Shown here in pieces: positions 3,009 through 24,235 of a stretch of 38,200 nucleotides of DNA. Source of the DNA: a virus (lineage: Duplodnaviria; Heunggongvirae; Uroviricota; Caudoviricetes); IMG/VR virus record IMGVR_UViG_2703719355_000022, positions 1-38,200 of that record, one strand, 5' to 3'. How positions within the stretch are numbered: position 1 is the stretch's first letter; each line of letters starts with the position of its first letter. Made by a program: the position numbers and the translations under genes. The notes below the pieces were generated by a model. The model saw nothing but the letters and a program-made list of their open reading frames with translations. It had not been told where the DNA came from and did not search any database.

Positions 3009-3218
3009 AATTGCGTTAGGCAGCGTAAGCAAGTTTCATAGTAGTTTCCTCTAAAATAATAAGTTCACTACTATTTATCAGAGAAAATTGTCTTACTATT
3101 GCATTCTCTATCTGGATGTGGGTATAGGCGGGATTGAATACGGCAAAACTGAAACATTCCACTACTGCAATAAATCACTAAACAATATAAAGAATATTGC
3201 AAGTGTGGAGTGGAACTA

Positions 3219-4709
3219 ATGCAAGATATTAAAATTCATTTTCAAGATTACAGTTTCGTTAAGGTTGATTGCTCTCCTTCTATCGGAATGGAATTAAGAG
3301 ATTATTTCTCGTTTGAGGTTGAAGGGGCTAGGTTTAGCCCCCGTTACAAGTATTCTGGCTGGGATGGACGAATAAGACTGTTTACGCATGAAAACACCCT
3401 ACCAATTGGACTATTAAAAACGTTGGGTGTCTTTGTTAAAAATATGGGCTATTCAGTCTGGATTGACCCGCGATTGCTTGAGAAGGAAGATGTAACCAAA
3501 GACGCGATTAATGAATGGATTGATTCCCTAGAAGTGTATTCCGGTTCCAATAAAATCAATCCTTACTGGTATCAGCGTGAAGCAGTCTTTCTGGGTATTC
3601 ATAATCGCCGTAGAATGCTGGTTCTTCCTACCAGTGCCGGAAAGTCATTGATTGCTTGTATGCTGTCTCGCTGGTACTTAGAGCATTACACCGGAAAAAT
3701 TCTAATCATTGTTCCGACTACATCGCTAGTGGTTCAAATGAGGGATGATTTCATCGATTATAGGCTATTCCCTTATGAAGCAATTCATACAATGATGAGT
3801 GGTAGCGGGAAACATCCGGGAGATAGGCTAATCACTGTTTCAACATGGCAATCAGCTTGCAAGATGCCTCCTGAATGGTTCCGACAATATGGAATGTTGA
3901 TAGTTGATGAATCACATAAGGCTAGTGCCAAAAATATTACCAATATCATCAATGGAATGAATCATTGCCAGTTCAAAATCGGTATGACTGGTTCCCCGAA
4001 AGAATCAAAATGCCATTTAATGCAGTATGTCGGGCTTTTCGGTGATATTTCTAAGATCGTTAGCATTGACCGCCTGATGGAAGAAGGTCAAGTGACGAAA
4101 CTGAAAATCAACTGTCTTTTCCTTCGTTATACCGATGAGGAATGTAGCGCGGTTAAGGGTAGAGAATATGCGGAAGAGATCAAGTATATTACGTCTAACC
4201 CACGACGTAATAAGTTTGCTTGTAATTTGGCGCTAAAACTCGCTAAGAAGGGCGAAAACGTATTCCTGATGTTCCGCAATACTAAGCACGGAAAACTTAT
4301 GTATGATGCGTTACAGAAGGTACACGACAAGGTTTATTATATTGACGGTGGAGTTAAGACAGAAGAACGAGACGAGTTCAAAAAATTAGCGGAAGGGGAA
4401 ACAGGGATCATTTGCGTTGCATCCTATGGTGTGTTCTCTACTGGTGTTTCTATCAAGAACTTGCACCATGTTATTTTCGGGCATCCAGTTAAAGAATCAA
4501 CCATTGTTAGACAGAGTATCGGTCGTGCATTGCGCAAACATGGTTCTAAGGATATTGCTACCGTTTGGGATCTTATAGATCATCTGTGTATATTCGGTCG
4601 TAACGGAAAAATCAAGCATAAAAATTATGCGGTAAAACATGCACTTGAGAGAATCCGCTATTATTTGACCGACAAGTTCAGCTATGCAACTAAAACAATT
4701 GCTATATAA
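3219..4709 (+). CDS. uvsW: UvsW-like superfamily-2 DNA helicase
   Basis: N-terminus MQDIKIHFQDYSFVKVDCS...GWDGRIRL and motifs LVLPTSAGKS (Walker A-like), IVDESH (DExH), VASYGVFSTG, WDLIDH match my recollection of T4 UvsW along the whole length; ATG at 3219 with GGAG upstream. Confidence 0.85.
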   Translation: MQDIKIHFQDYSFVKVDCSPSIGMELRDYFSFEVEGARFSPRYKYSGWDGRIRLFTHENTLPIGLLKTLGVFVKNMGYSVWIDPRLLEKEDVTKDAINEWIDSLEVYSGSNKINPYWYQREAVFLGIHNRRRMLVLPTSAGKSLIACMLSRWYLEHYTGKILIIVPTTSLVVQMRDDFIDYRLFPYEAIHTMMSGSGKHPGDRLITVSTWQSACKMPPEWFRQYGMLIVDESHKASAKNITNIINGMNHCQFKIGMTGSPKESKCHLMQYVGLFGDISKIVSIDRLMEEGQVTKLKINCLFLRYTDEECSAVKGREYAEEIKYITSNPRRNKFACNLALKLAKKGENVFLMFRNTKHGKLMYDALQKVHDKVYYIDGGVKTEERDEFKKLAEGETGIICVASYGVFSTGVSIKNLHHVIFGHPVKESTIVRQSIGRALRKHGSKDIATVWDLIDHLCIFGRNGKIKHKNYAVKHALERIRYYLTDKFSYATKTIAI

Positions 4710-16693: not shown

Positions 16694-19600
16694 TTATTTA
16701 GTTGCTTTGAGTTCGGCAATCTCTTTAGTCAATGCTTCAATCTTAGCTTGATATTTGACGTCCATTTCCTGAATAGCTTTAATAATCAAGGCATTAACAG
16801 CAGAGTTAGAAATAGTCTTAATTGCTTCTGGATTTTCTGGATCTTCGGTGGATTGAATACCTACTGCTTCCGGCAATACTTCTTCCAGATCCTGAGCAAT
16901 AATACCGACTTCGCGTTTAATCACACTACGATCTTTAAGAGACTTAACTTTATCGTATGAGTAGACTTTCAGGGAGTTTACTTTCTCTAAAGCATCATCT
17001 TTTAATTCTTCCAGATTAACTTTCAGACGACGGTCCGAACGAATGTAAACATCGTTAAAGCTACCGTTACGACCTGCGGTAAAGTCACCAGCAGCGTTAA
17101 AGTCAAAGTTAGTATCATGAACATGGAGACGCACAAGAGCGTTACCGATAGTACCGCTAGGAACATGTACACCCATTGCTGCGATATGATATTTACCTTG
17201 ATGGGTTGCTTTCCATACGTTATGAGCGGAATCGGTTGATTGTTGACAGTCGACCTGAATACCAGAAGCACGATCACGCCAGCTAGCCCAACTACCACCA
17301 GCAACGCTACCACGAATAAGACCATTACCGCCACCGGATACAGTGCCCGTTTCAAGGTGAATCATCTTACCGCCGAATTTCCAGACTTCGGTTTGTTTCT
17401 CACCGCGCATACGCATAACGCCAGCATCATCGCAGTACAACAGACCCAATTCTAAGCCATTTGGATCTCTAAACCACAAATGCTTATTGCCACTGCGACG
17501 AAACTCAATATCAGCACCGTTAAGCGTGATATTACCGCCAGTGTGAATTGCTTTAGGTTTAACAGTACCGTTGATGGCAAACTCGATTAATTCAGTACCC
17601 GGACCGCCCGGTCGTTGTGTGTACCAGTGCCAACCGCTTTCGTCCGCACATTCGAATACTTGTTTACGAGCATCAGCACCCCACGCACGGATATTAAAGC
17701 TAGAAGTAGCTGTATTTTTGCCCCACGTTAATTTTCCTTCGGTAGTTAAATCCCCTCGGAAATGAGCAAGCAAACCACCAGATCCGTTACGTTCAGTGGT
17801 AAAGTGAGTTCCGCTAGTGTCCTGGAATTGCAAAACGTTATATCGGTTAGCGTTACTATTCCCCCAATGGTTAATCGTGAAAGAATCCATTGACTGATTC
17901 CCACCAGCAGAGAAAGTAAGCAATCCTTTTTCTAAGAATACGTTATTACTAAAGCGAGCAGCACGGCTATCTCTTTCAAGAATTAATGCACCTTCGTTAC
18001 CATCACCACCTAAAGTAACTTTACCATTTGTCAAATCGTAAATGAATGGTCGGTTTCCGTTCCACCCGCCCAATTTATCATTTTCGGCAGTAGAAAGAAG
18101 ATAAACTTTAGTGCCGTCATTACGCCAGAATGCACCATAATTACCGTAGATCATGCGGTAGGCGTCGCTATTCATTGAGATGAATTGAGCGTTAGTATAA
18201 ACTCGTTTTGTTCTACCAGTTGCAAGTTCGATCTGTCCGTCGATGTGGTGACGAATAGAAGTACCACCTACATCACTATACCATTCAAAAACGTTAGTAT
18301 CAGCATTACCATAACCGATCCACCCTTGACGGGTAATATCTCCAGTCCGATTATCTTGAAACGCAATATGGTTGGATTGACCAGCAGGACGCCGCAAGGT
18401 AATAACATTACTACCGCCACCTAACATCATTCGACCAGAAAGAATATTACCTTTATGAGTCCCAGCAATAGAGCTACTAGATTCAACGGTTAGAATCTCC
18501 TGAGCATCAGTGCTACCAGTAGCCAGACGATAACTGGAACCTTGAACCGTCTCATGCCAGATCATTTCATTATAGTTACTGCGGAATTTACGAATATATT
18601 TCCGACCAGTACCTTTATCATTACTTAGATGAACAATGTCATAGCTGTTTTGTGTGTTGTCGTCAAAACTCAACACACCACGTTTATTTTCTGTGTTAAA
18701 AAGAGTTACGTTGCGACCACCGATAACACCAACGGAAGGTTTAATTAACGTGGCTTCCGGCGTATCATAAACCGTCAAACTTACATAAACAGATTTCCCA
18801 TATTCGACAATAACGTTATCGGTATAACGCTGATATTTCACGTAGATATCATAGTTATCACCGGAAGTATTGACAGCAAATACCTCAAAATCTTTGTTTG
18901 TATTTCTACGGTATGCAATTACGTTAAGACCTTTAGGTCTATCGTTACCACTACGGAGAAGAATTTCTACTACATCAACTTGGTCATATGCCGTAACGTT
19001 GTAACCATTACCACCATGAATACGGAAAAACACACTACGCCCGTTTTGTGGAATTGTTGCGGTTGCCAATTTGAAATATGCAGATACGTTTTCGCTAGAA
19101 TTGGGAACAGACATAACGACGTTTTTAACAAACATCTTATCAACTTCGGCTTTGGTGTATGCACCAATCTCGCCAGGAGTCGGCTTATCACCTTCGTGAT
19201 ACATTTTATAGCTAAAGTCCTTCTGTCCTTCTCTATCAAAACCATAGGTTTCAACACGAGATCCACCAGACGCATAACGGAAAGTAAATCCGCGACCGTG
19301 CGCTTTACCGGCAGAATGAGGAACATTAAGAGTTAGATCTAAAAGACCATCTTGTTCATTAGTTCGGAAAGCACCAAAGTAATTAAGATCTCGTGATGTC
19401 TGGTCTTCCAGATAGTTAGCTGTCTTGCTTAACAGATACCCACCATGCTTAGTATTGGTATTCTTCTTGATGTAAAGAGCATCGTTGCTACCTTCAATAC
19501 CATCAATTCGACGGTTAGCGGCTGCAATCGCTGAATCAGTAGCTGATTTATTCTGGTCAACCTTGTTGTTAATGGCGGTGTGGTTGCTATTAACAGTGTT

Positions 19601-20305
19601 GGTTAAGTTGGTGATCTTCGTATCAGCATCGACCTTGTTATCGGATACAACCTTTTCGATTGCGGTCTTATTCGCCGCTACTGTCCCACTAAGGTTATTA
19701 ATTTTTGTGTCCGCGTCTTTCTTATTGGAAGTCACTGTAGCGGTTAAATTGCTAACGTTGGTGTTAGTGGTATTGACCTTGTTGTTTATTGCGGTATTGT
19801 TGTCCGCGACCGTCTTTGATAAAGCTGCGTGTTTACTATCGGCATCAGATTTATTCTGGTCGACCTTTGTGTTAATAGCGGTATGGTTGCTACTTACGGT
19901 CCCACTAAGATTATTAATTTTGGTGTCAGCATCGACCTTGTTATCACTAACCACTTTGGTCAAATTGCTAACGTTGGTATTAGTAGCATCAATGCGCTTA
20001 TTGGTCGCTGTATCTTTCGTGGTAATAGTCTGATTCAGTTCAGCTTTAGCACTAGCCAGATTATTAGCGGCCTCTTGTTTGTTGGAAGCAATAACACGGT
20101 CAGTGCTAGTTTTGTTATTGTCTACTTTCGTGTTTAAAGCATTATGACTTTCTGGGGAAACGCTGATTTGAACTACTGCGTTATTTTTGTCTTTGGTGTA
20201 AATTACATGGTCTGCCATCTGAATAGCGATTTCACCGACCTGTAATTGTTCTGGCGTTGGCTTTTTACCAGCCGTCTGTGTGCGTTTAAATTGGATAGAC
20301 TCCAT
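16694..20305 (-). CDS. tail fiber protein with C-terminal intramolecular chaperone (peptidase S74-like) domain, 1203 aa
   Basis: N-terminal tandem ~44-aa repeats (NTNVSNLT...DADTKINNLSGTV...); C-terminal segment DRRLKVNLEEL...VGIIAQDLEEVLPEAV resembles auto-cleaving chaperone domains of phage fibers. Confidence 0.8.
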   Translation of the reverse strand: MESIQFKRTQTAGKKPTPEQLQVGEIAIQMADHVIYTKDKNNAVVQISVSPESHNALNTKVDNNKTSTDRVIASNKQEAANNLASAKAELNQTITTKDTATNKRIDATNTNVSNLTKVVSDNKVDADTKINNLSGTVSSNHTAINTKVDQNKSDADSKHAALSKTVADNNTAINNKVNTTNTNVSNLTATVTSNKKDADTKINNLSGTVAANKTAIEKVVSDNKVDADTKITNLTNTVNSNHTAINNKVDQNKSATDSAIAAANRRIDGIEGSNDALYIKKNTNTKHGGYLLSKTANYLEDQTSRDLNYFGAFRTNEQDGLLDLTLNVPHSAGKAHGRGFTFRYASGGSRVETYGFDREGQKDFSYKMYHEGDKPTPGEIGAYTKAEVDKMFVKNVVMSVPNSSENVSAYFKLATATIPQNGRSVFFRIHGGNGYNVTAYDQVDVVEILLRSGNDRPKGLNVIAYRRNTNKDFEVFAVNTSGDNYDIYVKYQRYTDNVIVEYGKSVYVSLTVYDTPEATLIKPSVGVIGGRNVTLFNTENKRGVLSFDDNTQNSYDIVHLSNDKGTGRKYIRKFRSNYNEMIWHETVQGSSYRLATGSTDAQEILTVESSSSIAGTHKGNILSGRMMLGGGSNVITLRRPAGQSNHIAFQDNRTGDITRQGWIGYGNADTNVFEWYSDVGGTSIRHHIDGQIELATGRTKRVYTNAQFISMNSDAYRMIYGNYGAFWRNDGTKVYLLSTAENDKLGGWNGNRPFIYDLTNGKVTLGGDGNEGALILERDSRAARFSNNVFLEKGLLTFSAGGNQSMDSFTINHWGNSNANRYNVLQFQDTSGTHFTTERNGSGGLLAHFRGDLTTEGKLTWGKNTATSSFNIRAWGADARKQVFECADESGWHWYTQRPGGPGTELIEFAINGTVKPKAIHTGGNITLNGADIEFRRSGNKHLWFRDPNGLELGLLYCDDAGVMRMRGEKQTEVWKFGGKMIHLETGTVSGGGNGLIRGSVAGGSWASWRDRASGIQVDCQQSTDSAHNVWKATHQGKYHIAAMGVHVPSGTIGNALVRLHVHDTNFDFNAAGDFTAGRNGSFNDVYIRSDRRLKVNLEELKDDALEKVNSLKVYSYDKVKSLKDRSVIKREVGIIAQDLEEVLPEAVGIQSTEDPENPEAIKTISNSAVNALIIKAIQEMDVKYQAKIEALTKEIAELKATK

Positions 20306-21222: not shown

Positions 21223-21651
21223 TTAAAAACGCGCTAGATAAGAAAATTTAAGGCTAAGTGTCCCAACGATACCCCCATCACTAGAATCATCGTCATAATC
21301 GGTATTAGAAGCTACTGGAGTGATATCTGAAATAGAGAAGCCCAAATCTTTAAATCGTGGGTTATCCGGCTGAATCTGGATTATCTGGCAAATACCCTCA
21401 TGGATTTTTGTTTCATGAATCTGAGAATATAATTGCATTTCGATAACGCATTCAGCTTGCATTGCATTACCACCACGAACACGCGTATAAGTTTCATTCA
21501 TGCCAGTAATCCAACAAACCACGTCATCACTAAAGCCTTGCTGAGTTTGTTCTACGTTTAAAGCCAGACCTAGATCTTGTTCGATAATATCCTGTAAAGC
21601 ACGTTTAATCTTAAGACGTGGCATATTATTAACGGTAGCGAGCATGTGCAC
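21223..21651 (-). CDS. putative head-tail joining / tail completion protein, 142 aa
   Basis: Position downstream of capsid gene; overlaps upstream ORF by 23 nt; no motif confirmed. Confidence 0.35.
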   Translation of the reverse strand: MHMLATVNNMPRLKIKRALQDIIEQDLGLALNVEQTQQGFSDDVVCWITGMNETYTRVRGGNAMQAECVIEMQLYSQIHETKIHEGICQIIQIQPDNPRFKDLGFSISDITPVASNTDYDDDSSDGGIVGTLSLKFSYLARF

Positions 21652-21919
21652 CCCCTGCTAAAGTGATAAAGCAATCACTGGTATTGTCACCATTGCGCTT
21701 AATGTATTGAACTTTAAAACGCTGATTTTCTACAATGACAATATCACCCTGCTTTAAATCTCCCTCACGACAGAATAAGAATTCTGTTTCTGTCATTACC
21801 CCTTGTTCGTCGGTAGTAGTAATTTCATGGTAAGCACGAATTGATTTACCACCTTCCACCATAAAAACAGGAGCACTCTTAAACATTCGATTTAATTGTG
21901 ATTCTGATAATTTGAACAT
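21629..21919 (-). CDS. putative head-tail connector protein, 96 aa
   Basis: First gene after capsid gene terminator; position-based. Confidence 0.35.
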   Translation of the reverse strand: MFKLSESQLNRMFKSAPVFMVEGGKSIRAYHEITTTDEQGVMTETEFLFCREGDLKQGDIVIVENQRFKVQYIKRNGDNTSDCFITLAGGAHARYR

Positions 21920-21949: not shown

Positions 21950-21980
21950 CAAAAAAGCCCCACCGATAAAGGCAGGGCTA
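21950..21980 (-). terminator. rho-independent terminator (same family) after the capsid gene and its extension
   Basis: TAGCCCTGCC-TTTATC-GGTGGGGCTTTTTT on minus strand. Confidence 0.65.
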
Positions 21981-21984
21981 ATTA

Positions 21985-22119
21985 TTATTTTGCTTTCGGT
22001 GGACGACCCACCTTTTTAGCTGTGGCTTTCGCCTTAACCGTCTGGGATTCTTCTTCCTGTGGTGGAATCGGATTTTCTTCCCCCAAATCGGGGGAAGGTT
22101 CAGAAGGTTCTACGTTATT
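21985..22119 (-). other. in-frame stop-free extension (44 codons) after the TGA of the capsid gene; candidate readthrough domain
   Basis: Hand translation after TGA gives NNVEPSEPSPDLGEENPIPPQEEESQTVKAKATAKKVGRPPKAK then TAA at 21985-21987. Confidence 0.45.
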
Positions 22120-24192
22120 TCAATCGCTTTTTTTCTGGACTACGGTCAGTGCGCTATGGTCCATAACAGCCCAATCCAAATCAGCCCATACACGGAAGTA
22201 CAGGTTGCCAGCCGCGCGACCTGTGGTGTCGTCGCAATCCAGTTCCAGCGATCCGAAGTCCGCAATTGCCAGAGAGCTAAAGTCACCAAACAGCATCGTA
22301 TCCTGAGCAATTACACCAGAGCCATAGATCGGACGGTTAACCAGTTTATCACCTTCTACCAGGAAGCCCGGAACGTTAGCGGCTTTCAGTTGCGCTGAAA
22401 GTTCAGCTTTAATAACACCACGAGTAGCAAATGCCAGATCAGATTCGTTAAAACCTTTGTCTGTTTGTTCAGCAACCAGTTTCAGGAACTCGGCATAGGT
22501 CCAATCAATCTGTTTAACTTTGCCAGCGTCGGTCAGGATCTTAGTCAGACCATCACGAGCGTTAGTGTTAGCAGCATTGGACAGGATCGCTTTTTCCAGA
22601 GCGATAGCACTGTGTTTCAGCATGTGCTCACCAACGATAGCACCGATGTTAGGCAGAGTGATAGCAGCCTGACGAGTTACAGGAACAATTCCATTGAATG
22701 TCTTAAGAGTCATCGGCTGTGCTGCAAACTTGATAGTACCTTCACCAGCGGATTGACCTTCTGCAACAAAACCGAAGTTTTCCAGATTGCTGGAAGTCAG
22801 AGACGGCAGAGATACCGGACCAGTTGCGTTAATGGTACGCACGCCCAATTTGCCCAGAATAGAACGTTCCATGATCATATCAACGAAGCAATCATGGCGG
22901 ATTTCTTCACCAACTACAGGTTTCAGAGATTCCATGTTCTGGCTAGCACGCAGAGCGGACGCCGGAATGAATACGGAGTTAGAACGCTGTGCACGACCAC
23001 GCGCTGCGGCTTTACGTGCTTCTTCCTGAGAATATTCAGCTTCTGCGCCAGTCAGTGCTTTACCCTCTGCGATTGCACGTACAGCTTTATTAAGATCGAA
23101 ACGAGATTCCAGAGTTTTAATGGTATCGGTCATGGTAATTTTTCCTTTAACAAAAGTTTTAGATTCGGTAGTATTTAGTGCGCGTGCTTTTTCTTTAAAA
23201 TTTTCAATAGTCACGGCACTATCTTTAATTGCGGCTTCAATTACGTCTTCGGAGATATTTAGATGTTTTCCGATAGCACGAATTTCGGCGGTATCTTCGC
23301 GAGAACGTTCAAACGGTTTTTCTTCGTCTTCAATCTTTTCTTCTTCGACTGGTTCGGATGTATTTTCCGTTTCGTCGTTCTCGTCTGTATCTTTATTTAG
23401 TTCTTCTGTTTCTTCCGGTTTAATTTCTTCTTCCGGTTCATCTTCGGAACGTTCTTCTTTTTCTTCTGGCGTTACTTCTTGCGGGTTTTCCACATCTTCG
23501 CCACTGTCAGCACTATTTCCAGAATCGGAATCAATTTCTTCATTTTCCTGTTCCTCTTTCTCTTCTTCGGAACGTTTTTCTTCATCTTCCGGTTTAATTT
23601 CTTCTACCGGAGTGTCTTTAATTTCGTCTTCCACTTGTTCACCCTCCAAAACAATCATTTCGTTGTCTGTATTTAGAGAGCGTCCAACACCCGCGTTAAA
23701 TGGATCTGCGGCACACGTTACAAGACTGCATTCGAAAGGTTGCCAGCGTGTAACGTAATAGATCCCTTTGTTAAAATCGGCTTTGCCATCAAGAACGTTA
23801 TAACCGACGCTAACTTGTGAAAGTGTTCCCTCTTTTACCTTCTCAAAGCATTCATTAGCCAGTTGGCCTACTTTGGAGAATTGGACAAGGCAACGACCTA
23901 CACGGTCTTCGTCAATACGAGCGGAGCCAGGAACAATCTTGCCGATATGAAGGTCCAGATTGTGATTAAACAGAAGACTTGCGTTAGTCTCGTTTAAAAC
24001 GGATAGATCAACCGCTGATTCATCGTGTACGAGAATCTCTTTTAATTCGACTTGCTCGCCGTCCTGATTCATGTAATAACGTGTATAAGGAGCCTCGCTT
24101 GAGAAAGCCAATTCAATAATTCGTTCGTCTTTTTCTTCGATAAAATCAGGGGTATCTACCGCAACACTACGACGGAATTGTTTTGTTGTCAT
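22120..24192 (-). CDS. prohead protease / acidic scaffold-like linker / HK97-fold major capsid protein fusion, 690 aa
   Basis: N-terminal ~170 aa resemble HK97-type prohead protease (LSQVSVGYNVLDG...WQPFECSLVTCAADPFNA); ~150-aa Glu-rich linker with internal repeats; C-terminal ~350 aa with HK97-fold capsid-like motifs (GNLYFRVWADLDWAV); ends in TGA. Confidence 0.8.
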   Translation of the reverse strand: MTTKQFRRSVAVDTPDFIEEKDERIIELAFSSEAPYTRYYMNQDGEQVELKEILVHDESAVDLSVLNETNASLLFNHNLDLHIGKIVPGSARIDEDRVGRCLVQFSKVGQLANECFEKVKEGTLSQVSVGYNVLDGKADFNKGIYYVTRWQPFECSLVTCAADPFNAGVGRSLNTDNEMIVLEGEQVEDEIKDTPVEEIKPEDEEKRSEEEKEEQENEEIDSDSGNSADSGEDVENPQEVTPEEKEERSEDEPEEEIKPEETEELNKDTDENDETENTSEPVEEEKIEDEEKPFERSREDTAEIRAIGKHLNISEDVIEAAIKDSAVTIENFKEKARALNTTESKTFVKGKITMTDTIKTLESRFDLNKAVRAIAEGKALTGAEAEYSQEEARKAAARGRAQRSNSVFIPASALRASQNMESLKPVVGEEIRHDCFVDMIMERSILGKLGVRTINATGPVSLPSLTSSNLENFGFVAEGQSAGEGTIKFAAQPMTLKTFNGIVPVTRQAAITLPNIGAIVGEHMLKHSAIALEKAILSNAANTNARDGLTKILTDAGKVKQIDWTYAEFLKLVAEQTDKGFNESDLAFATRGVIKAELSAQLKAANVPGFLVEGDKLVNRPIYGSGVIAQDTMLFGDFSSLAIADFGSLELDCDDTTGRAAGNLYFRVWADLDWAVMDHSALTVVQKKSD

Positions 24193-24235
24193 AGATCACC
24201 TTGAAAATTATTGGGGGCATTGCGCCCCCGTTGGG

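Follow-up and report, generated by a model that had tools for sequence, protein, structure and literature searches.

The stretch of tailed-phage DNA analysed here, positions 1 to 38,200 of the IMG/VR virus record IMGVR_UViG_2703719355_000022 (Caudoviricetes; 38,200 nucleotides, hereafter the window), carries a gene for a protease-capsid fusion protein whose TGA stop codon is followed, in the same frame, by 44 sense codons. On comparative sequence grounds we favour, with moderate confidence, the reading that UGA readthrough at this stop is under selection and would yield a minor, C-terminally extended capsid protein, the UGA being decoded probably by tRNA-Trp. A first-pass annotation of this DNA had proposed a minor extended capsid species whose tail bears an AT-hook-like motif; comparison with related loci supports the readthrough extension and does not support the AT-hook.

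The gene that bears the extension encodes a tailed-phage major capsid protein of the HK97 fold. The open reading frame (ORF) at 22120-24192 on the minus strand, whose coding part in the ORF list (22123..24192) specifies a 690-aa fusion of protease, acidic linker and HK97-type major capsid protein, matches Pfam Peptidase_S78 (PF04586) over residues 59-162 and Phage_capsid (PF05065) over residues 433-686, as well as PHROG 617 (major head protein) and the major capsid protein of PDB 8gta (E = 8e-12). Its stop codon TGA (22120..22122, minus) stands in the context GAT TGA AAT, with an Asp/Glu codon before it and A after it, and the minus-strand 3' end of the gene reads GTC CAG AAA AAA AGC GAT TGA AAT AAC GTA GAA, which includes, two codons upstream of the stop, an A7 homopolymer (CAG AAA AAA AGC; 22128..22134, minus) whose counterpart is A6 in some relatives. 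TAA is the stop of 30 of the 34 ORFs in the window and TGA of three, and the capsid gene, whose expression is presumably among the highest in the phage, is the only one ending in TGA-A.

Behind the capsid TGA there is no back-up stop in the window for 44 codons. The extension that these codons specify, NNVEPSEPSPDLGEENPIPPQEEESQTVKAKATAKKVGRPPKAK (21988..22119, minus), consists of an acidic part rich in Pro, Glu and Ser followed by a Lys/Arg-rich tip, and has no Pfam match. It ends at tandem stops, TAA TAA (21982..21987, minus), placed 2 nt ahead of the stem of an intrinsic terminator, AGCCCUGCC-UUUAUC-GGUGGGGCU followed by U6 (21950..21979, minus; stem 21956-21979, 9 pairs). The coordinates first assigned to the capsid TGA, the extension and its TAA at 21985-21987, together with the count of 44 residues, are all exact, and the terminator that had been placed directly behind the extension is indeed found there as a 9-pair hairpin (21956-21979) and a T-run.

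Of 5,426 complete E. coli genomes, 54 contain prophages with DNA matches to the window. In many of the matching prophages the capsid gene is too divergent for a DNA match and homology begins exactly at the capsid stop, the extension, the terminator and the gene downstream (21629..21919, minus; a 96-aa protein with a weak match to the head-tail attachment family, Pfam PF05354) forming a module common to different capsid lineages. Related loci were gathered from IMG/VR by way of this downstream gene (35 loci), from metagenomes by way of an invariant spacer (15) and from E. coli (7). In 55 of the 56 informative loci, representing 30 distinct haplotypes, the capsid ORF ends in GA[N] TGA A[A/C]T and a stop-free extension continues in its frame, and this TGA-A layout spans two lineages that are 37% identical over the capsid domain plus a third type (37-41% protein identity between lineages). 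The single exception is ETEC1703 (locus L001, 3666-3670), which has one A fewer in the A6 run than PE15 and HeN100 and is otherwise identical to both of these along the aligned stretch; the missing A is probably a sequencing (homopolymer) error or a very recent frameshift. The RefSeq capsid C-terminus of ETEC1703 consequently differs, reading KKLTELL and ending at TAG.

Among these loci the extension occurs in eight lengths (27, 28, 33, 35, 42, 43, 44 and 45 codons) and with four basic tail ends, KKVGRPPKAK, KKQRKTKE, KKERKTKAK and KRGRKPKE. In all loci it finishes at TAATAA (or TGATAA) followed directly by TTAGCCC, so that every length variant reaches a homologous stop and the distance from the TGA to the TAATAA is always a multiple of three. 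Stops or frame-breaking indels in relatives, which the first-pass annotation had named as evidence that would speak against an extended capsid, were looked for and none was found apart from the 1-nt homopolymer deletion of ETEC1703. When a profile of 17 extension peptides was compared with 5.8 billion proteins, the sole match was a 33-aa prediction with a TTG start in a metagenome-assembled genome (MAG). The conserved spacer, searched for as an exact pattern in 100,044 species genomes, gave no match, and the extension is annotated in none of the seven RefSeq loci examined.

The pattern of change within the extension points to selection on its reading frame. At least six independent length changes have occurred in it (+3, +3, -3, -27, -48 and a tail replacement), all of them multiples of three, whereas 1- and 2-nt indels are common in the ~35-nt spacer just downstream; in-phase indels make up 6 of 6 in the extension versus 1 of ~7 in the spacer (Fisher p = 0.005). 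No stop appears among ~66 inferred substitutions, where 2.9 would be expected (P = 0.05). A check of all six frames showed that only the sense frame in phase with the TGA is free of stops in every haplotype. The extension has a nucleotide diversity (0.09-0.18) similar to that of the capsid 3' end, and the terminator and spacer are nearly invariant (about 0.006 for the terminator). A recent nonsense mutation leaving a decaying pseudogene tail is ruled out by the 30 haplotypes, the many in-phase indels and the lack of decay, and an antisense gene across the extension was rejected, the antisense frames being interrupted or lacking starts in several haplotypes.

Selection on the encoded peptide is fainter. 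A minimum-spanning count of codon changes gives an omega of about 0.5 with a synonymous excess (p = 0.02); the GRPP segment shows synonymous changes (GGT/GGA, CGT/CGC, CCA/CCG), and one K -> R replacement came about by a two-base change. The comparison of related phages that had been proposed for the extension is therefore borne out as regards a frame that is open and in phase in 55 of 56 loci, and only weakly as regards protein-level conservation. The acidic-then-basic layout is common to the short form and the four tails, in keeping with the Pro/Glu-rich and then Lys-rich composition that had been remarked on at the outset. What has been conserved is the composition, the sequence having been kept only in part. 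The GRP motif within it, which occurs in VGRPPKAK tails only and has no Pfam match, is one of four interchangeable basic ends; since it is not conserved, the AT-hook idea fails.

With respect to how the UGA would be decoded, a scan of the window found no tRNA gene, and hence no suppressor tRNA, and an Rfam search around the stop with E up to 10 returned chance-level matches only. A -1 or +1 frameshift at the A7 run was considered and rejected, since both of these frames stop within 4-6 codons past the run and the extension lies in the zero frame; there is no conserved slippery heptamer either, and the length of the A-run varies among relatives. Together with hairpins that are not of the selenocysteine insertion sequence (SECIS) type (see below), these findings leave near-cognate decoding of UGA as the simplest route. 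UGA followed by A is described as particularly prone to tRNA-Trp misreading in E. coli in PMC5289835, which cites Engelberg-Kulka 1981, and by mass spectrometry Trp is the main residue inserted at TGA, with readthrough of a few per cent that rises to 14% or more under some conditions or stress (PMC11126739). The earlier remark that UGA is a readthrough-prone stop in E. coli agrees with both sources. In genes that end in TGA, back-up stops normally follow at a short distance and a conserved extension is lacking (PMC11126739); a leaky stop without a back-up for 27-45 codons in a presumably highly expressed gene would be costly unless its product were tolerated or useful.

According to the mechanism proposed here, during late expression most ribosomes would stop at GA[N]-UGA-A through release factor 2 (RF2) and release the normal protease-scaffold-capsid precursor, while a minority would read the UGA with a near-cognate tRNA, most likely tRNA-Trp, at what we infer to be a useful level. 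Readthrough would add Trp and 27-45 further residues (44 in the window, about 5 kDa) before ending at the tandem UAA UAA ahead of the terminator, and the predicted junction peptide in the window is K|SD-W-NNVEPSEPSPDLGEENPIPPQEEESQTVK. The result would be a minor form of the capsid subunit whose C-terminal tail is intrinsically disordered and in which an acidic Pro/Glu/Ser-rich spacer carries a Lys/Arg-rich tip, and this subunit would be expected to co-assemble into virions in a few copies per head, as T7 gp10B or Qbeta A1 do. The tail may be exposed on the head, and its function may, as a guess, be electrostatic adhesion or a role in assembly or stability.

Several observations weigh against selected readthrough. 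In the window taken by itself the open frame is not beyond chance: the frame stays open in 11% of mononucleotide shuffles of the 132 nt (P about 0.11), and an in-frame continuation of at least 44 codons follows 4 of the 34 long ORFs, the other three running for 203-510 codons. The extension region is T-poor, so open frames are cheap in it, and Lys-rich translations arise readily from A-rich DNA before terminators, as at locus L093. All of the loci represent one conserved module whose junction falls within the last one or two capsid codons; the TGA, and likewise its phase with the extension, thus go back to one origin and do not count as independent observations. The TGA is not replaced by a sense codon in any relative, no fused long form occurs among the 5.8 billion database proteins, and among 50,697 phage records there is neither near-identical DNA nor an isolated or characterised relative. 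Changes in the extension show no third-position bias (19:23:24, as against 23:9:41 in the neighbouring gene), which together with the omega of about 0.5 indicates that the amino-acid sequence is weakly constrained. Finally, compensatory changes in three hairpins indicate some selection at the level of RNA, which could explain part of the conservation.

This last point leads to the alternative that survives best, although we regard it as unlikely, namely that the region is a structured 3' untranslated region (UTR) in which three hairpins (H1-H3) and the terminator stabilise or process the abundant capsid mRNA, the open frame arising incidentally from a T-poor composition and common descent. Shuffled versions of the extension fold less well than the extension itself (z = -3.6 for the long form and -3.0 for the short form), and a strong hairpin is present soon past the stop in the long and the short class despite their differing sequences. 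In the long class this is H1, CUUCCCCC-GAUUU-GGGGGAAG (22077..22097, minus), which lies 22 nt past the UGA and has a stem that is invariant in all aligned 33- to 45-codon variants, with one loop substitution (L021). The 27- and 28-codon variants have a different, 11-bp hairpin, AAUUGCCGGAA-GAAA-UUCCGGUAGUU, which lies 10 nt past the UGA and shows compensatory changes. Among only seven short-class sequences, three pairs have changed on both sides with pairing kept. One of these three is in the mini-hairpin H2, GGC-GAAA-GCC (22024..22033, minus), which is GGA-GAAA-UCC in L058, a replacement that requires two amino-acid changes. The hairpin H3, GGUGG-GUCGU-CCACC (21998..22012, minus), which lies inside the basic tail and codes for VGRPP, has a variant GGCGG...CCGCC with both sides changed and pairing kept in L004, L006 and L046. 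Read on the plus strand, H3 is followed by TTTTT and resembles a terminator facing the opposite way. In the terminator itself, relatives differ by a single change affecting both sides (C-G to U-A) and by several changes on one side with pairing kept.

The missing third-position bias and the lack of significance of a single open frame would likewise be expected of a UTR. However, RNA structure needs no multiple-of-three indels, and yet the extension has these in six of six cases as opposed to one of seven in the adjacent spacer; nor does structure give a reason for the retention of TGA-A in a phage that otherwise uses TAA. H3 is missing from three of the four tail variants and H1 has been replaced wholesale, while the frame has always been kept, and the one frame open throughout is the sense frame in phase with the TGA. 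The hairpins 10-22 nt past the UGA may modulate readthrough, may make the capsid mRNA more stable at its 3' end, or may do both.

A second alternative, which we consider rather improbable, is that translation of the extension matters and not the peptide, in that readthrough ribosomes arriving at UAA UAA would hinder the terminator hairpin or protect the RNA and in this way set transcription of the head-tail and tail genes. Such a role would fit with a frame that is conserved while the amino-acid sequence is so weakly, with an almost invariant terminator and spacer, and with an extension stop that adjoins the terminator (TAATAATT-AGCCC) in every length variant. This adjacency is also found in Alexa, which has no extension and whose capsid stop lies 7 nt from the terminator stem, so that proximity of stop and terminator is ancestral and needs no readthrough. 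A low readthrough rate would moreover touch few transcripts, and the acidic-then-basic pattern in four unrelated tails and in the short form, like the K -> R double substitution, points to the protein.

Less probable again is another route to the tail, either a separate micro-ORF reached by reinitiation or a hop or frameshift at the stop. Arrangements of this kind are suggested by more distant members of the capsid family, as phage DCP80 has an ATG-started ORF of 28 codons, MERAISPMSLGAEALDAAPVKKSKSASG, 5 nt past its capsid TAA, and in the -1 frame of loci L085 and L096 there is a comparable Lys-rich ORF that lacks a start; a 33-aa ORF with a TTG start has also been annotated once, in the MAG noted above. 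In the E. coli group, on the other hand, comparison of the haplotypes found no conserved ATG, GTG or TTG from which an independent gene could start, the sole candidate being a TTG that has no Shine-Dalgarno sequence before it, is TCG in L021 and L022, and is absent or replaced by TTA or TCG in the short forms. A 'stop hop' of the type discussed in PMC5009743 would be permitted by the recurrence of the last sense codon, GAA, in frame 3-4 codons further on (GTA GAA / GAA GAA), but several haplotypes, the window included, have GAT, GAC or GAG as their last codon, so that a GAA-to-GAA hop is not general. For a frameshift, the closure of the -1 and +1 frames within 4-6 codons of the A7 run applies here too.

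Lastly, decoding of the UGA as selenocysteine through a SECIS-like hairpin can be set aside as very unlikely, for although a stable hairpin stands 10-22 nt downstream of the UGA, its sequence, loop (GAUUU versus GAAA) and distance differ between the classes, neither loop fits the E. coli fdhF SECIS with its apical GGUC loop and bulged U, there is no Rfam match near the stop at E = 10, and it is implausible on biological grounds that the most abundant protein of the virion should end with a selenocysteine codon.

To our knowledge, bacteria and their DNA viruses very rarely make functional use of stop-codon readthrough; the textbook example is the RNA phage Qbeta, whose readthrough protein was reportedly the subject of work by Weiner & Weber and by Hofstetter et al. 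Tailed phages, for their part, extend capsid and tail proteins by frameshifting. The readthrough proposed here is like that of Qbeta A1 in that the Qbeta coat gene ends in UGA-A, which is misread by tRNA-Trp at a few per cent to give a minor C-extended coat protein in the virion, and in that the extension starts with a flexible Pro-rich linker (cited in PMC5289835 and PMC7026636). Qbeta differs in being a single-stranded RNA phage with an unrelated coat fold and an extension of ~195 aa that includes a folded domain needed for infection, whereas the window represents a tailed double-stranded DNA (dsDNA) prophage with an HK97-type capsid and a predicted low-complexity tail of 27-45 aa that is probably unstructured, and the two share no ancestry.

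Another parallel is gp10B of T7 and T3, where the major capsid gene of a coliphage gives rise, by recoding near its end, to a minor species that is longer at the C-terminus by a few kDa and is co-assembled. The C-terminus of the T7 capsid protein is exposed, which is the basis of T7 display. In the T7 system, however, recoding is a -1 frameshift, while the present extension follows its UGA without a change of frame and lacks a conserved slippery heptamer. The major head protein of Lactobacillus phage A2, Listeria phage PSA and SPP1 gp17.1* similarly rely on recoding at the 3' end of a gene to produce a fixed minor fraction of extended subunits (PMC5009743; PMC8718954). These cases are experimentally proven -1 or +1 frameshifts that often add folded Ig/FN3 domains, as opposed to the predicted stop readthrough and short disordered tail described here.

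Among plant RNA viruses, the coat protein readthrough products (CP-RT/CP-RTD) of poleroviruses, enamoviruses and ilarviruses are alike in having a leaky capsid stop, a downstream RNA structure that modulates readthrough and a minor extended capsid protein (PMC9553062; PMC11166343). These involve eukaryotic ribosomes, RNA genomes and long extensions, in which they differ from the present case. For readthrough in bacteria, we know of no established role of downstream RNA structure. There is also a likeness to background readthrough of UGA in E. coli, in which RF2 competes with tRNA-Trp at UGA in a manner dependent on context and growth (PMC11126739), with the difference that here 27-45 codons are kept open in all haplotypes. 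In the literature searched, no report was found of stop-codon readthrough in the capsid gene of a tailed phage.

If selected readthrough of the capsid UGA is real, it would add a recoding route to tailed-phage biology and a virion component that annotation pipelines have missed. It would also offer a natural and easily engineered E. coli system for the study of UGA leakiness, in which the -1 codon, the +4 to +6 bases, the hairpins, RF2 alleles and growth conditions could be varied. Readthrough depends on the physiology of the cell, and heads made under different host conditions could therefore differ in how many tails they bear, with virion heterogeneity as a possible outcome.

In the wider capsid family, low-GC phage relatives at 27-42% identity (VP882, Alexa, DCP80, Mangrovibacter and several IMG/VR lineages) have a TAA stop and no zero-frame extension, and a terminator or the next gene follows close behind the capsid TAA. 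A scan of species genomes with the capsid profile found only Mangrovibacter (29% identity; TAA stop, without extension). The long in-frame 'extensions' encountered in high-GC relatives were rejected as GC artefacts. In L181-L186 and L090-L103, short, variable, low-complexity tails are part of the main ORF and follow the conserved KVL or RLFLYEK end of the fold (KVL-TPKAGTTTP, TPKAAAGGSNP, YEK-GTPAEAPAEAKAGK and GEAEAGETRKAK), with TAA and terminator directly behind each. These tails of other lineages indicate that the capsid C-terminus tolerates flexible tails.

Further arrangements were seen behind the capsid stop in other lineages. L085 (capsid stop at ~4415) and L096 (~4382), with capsids 32-36% identical, end in KTGA-TAA, behind which the start-less Lys-rich ORFs of the -1 frame, NTGEQASPAKVKKPRALKVK and DTGAQAAPVRKPRALKVTK, are set apart from each other by synonymous substitutions and by indels that keep the phase. 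The start of these ORFs is covered by a hairpin that lies 6 nt past the capsid stop and includes a compensatory change, and an A-run stands just upstream of the stop (A AAA AAG in L096). The tail in question could be made by a -1 frameshift, as in T7 10B, or by a hop. In L093 and L113, A5 and A8 runs precede a KAKAKA... tail read in the -1 frame. DCP80 (L038; Escherichia phage, PQ671644.1) has, at 3193-3330, a hairpin GGAGAGA-GCAA-TCTCTCC and the unannotated ATG ORF between the capsid TAA and the terminator, and this micro-ORF is similar in composition to the extension of the window. DCP80 is labelled Straboviridae (141 kb) and yet has a homologue of the protease-capsid fusion, which looks odd for a T4-like phage; an ORF upstream of this homologue sits where the window has a lambda-type portal gene.

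These observations suggest that conditional tails are a habit of the capsid family, and L085, L096, L093, L113 and DCP80 also keep alive a micro-ORF, hop or frameshift as the route. As a tentative extension of this idea, which we think possible and on balance doubtful, the family may make a flexible, substoichiometric C-terminal tail by recoding along lineage-specific routes, namely UGA-A readthrough in the E. coli prophages and a -1-frame tail behind an A-run in L085, L096, L093 and L113, the tail being constitutive elsewhere, with a hairpin 6-22 nt past the stop in the readthrough and L085/L096 cases. On that account the E. coli prophages would be the first tailed dsDNA phages for which programmed stop-codon readthrough is described, and bacterial ribosomes would be responding to an RNA stimulator.

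Other features of the window were noted in passing. The linker between the protease and capsid domains (~23290-23640; precursor residues ~185-300) is extremely acidic and rich in Pro and Glu, EEIKPEDEEKRSEEEKEEQENEE, and is presumably a delta-like scaffold region that is lost on maturation; in composition it is like the acidic first half of the proposed readthrough extension. The 43-nt gap between the capsid gene and the portal gene before it contains a GC-rich hairpin, GGGGGCG-CAA-UGCCCCC (24213-24229, minus), which scores as terminator-like despite a poor U-run and may be a processing or attenuation site. Elsewhere in the prophage, a gene for a 1203-aa fibre protein (16694-20305, minus) is 78-80% identical at the DNA level, over ~2.7 kb (16763-19438), to gp37 of RB49/Phi1-like T-even phages. 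As gp37 is the distal subunit of the long tail fibre, this similarity points to an exchange of receptor-binding modules between a temperate prophage and virulent phages.

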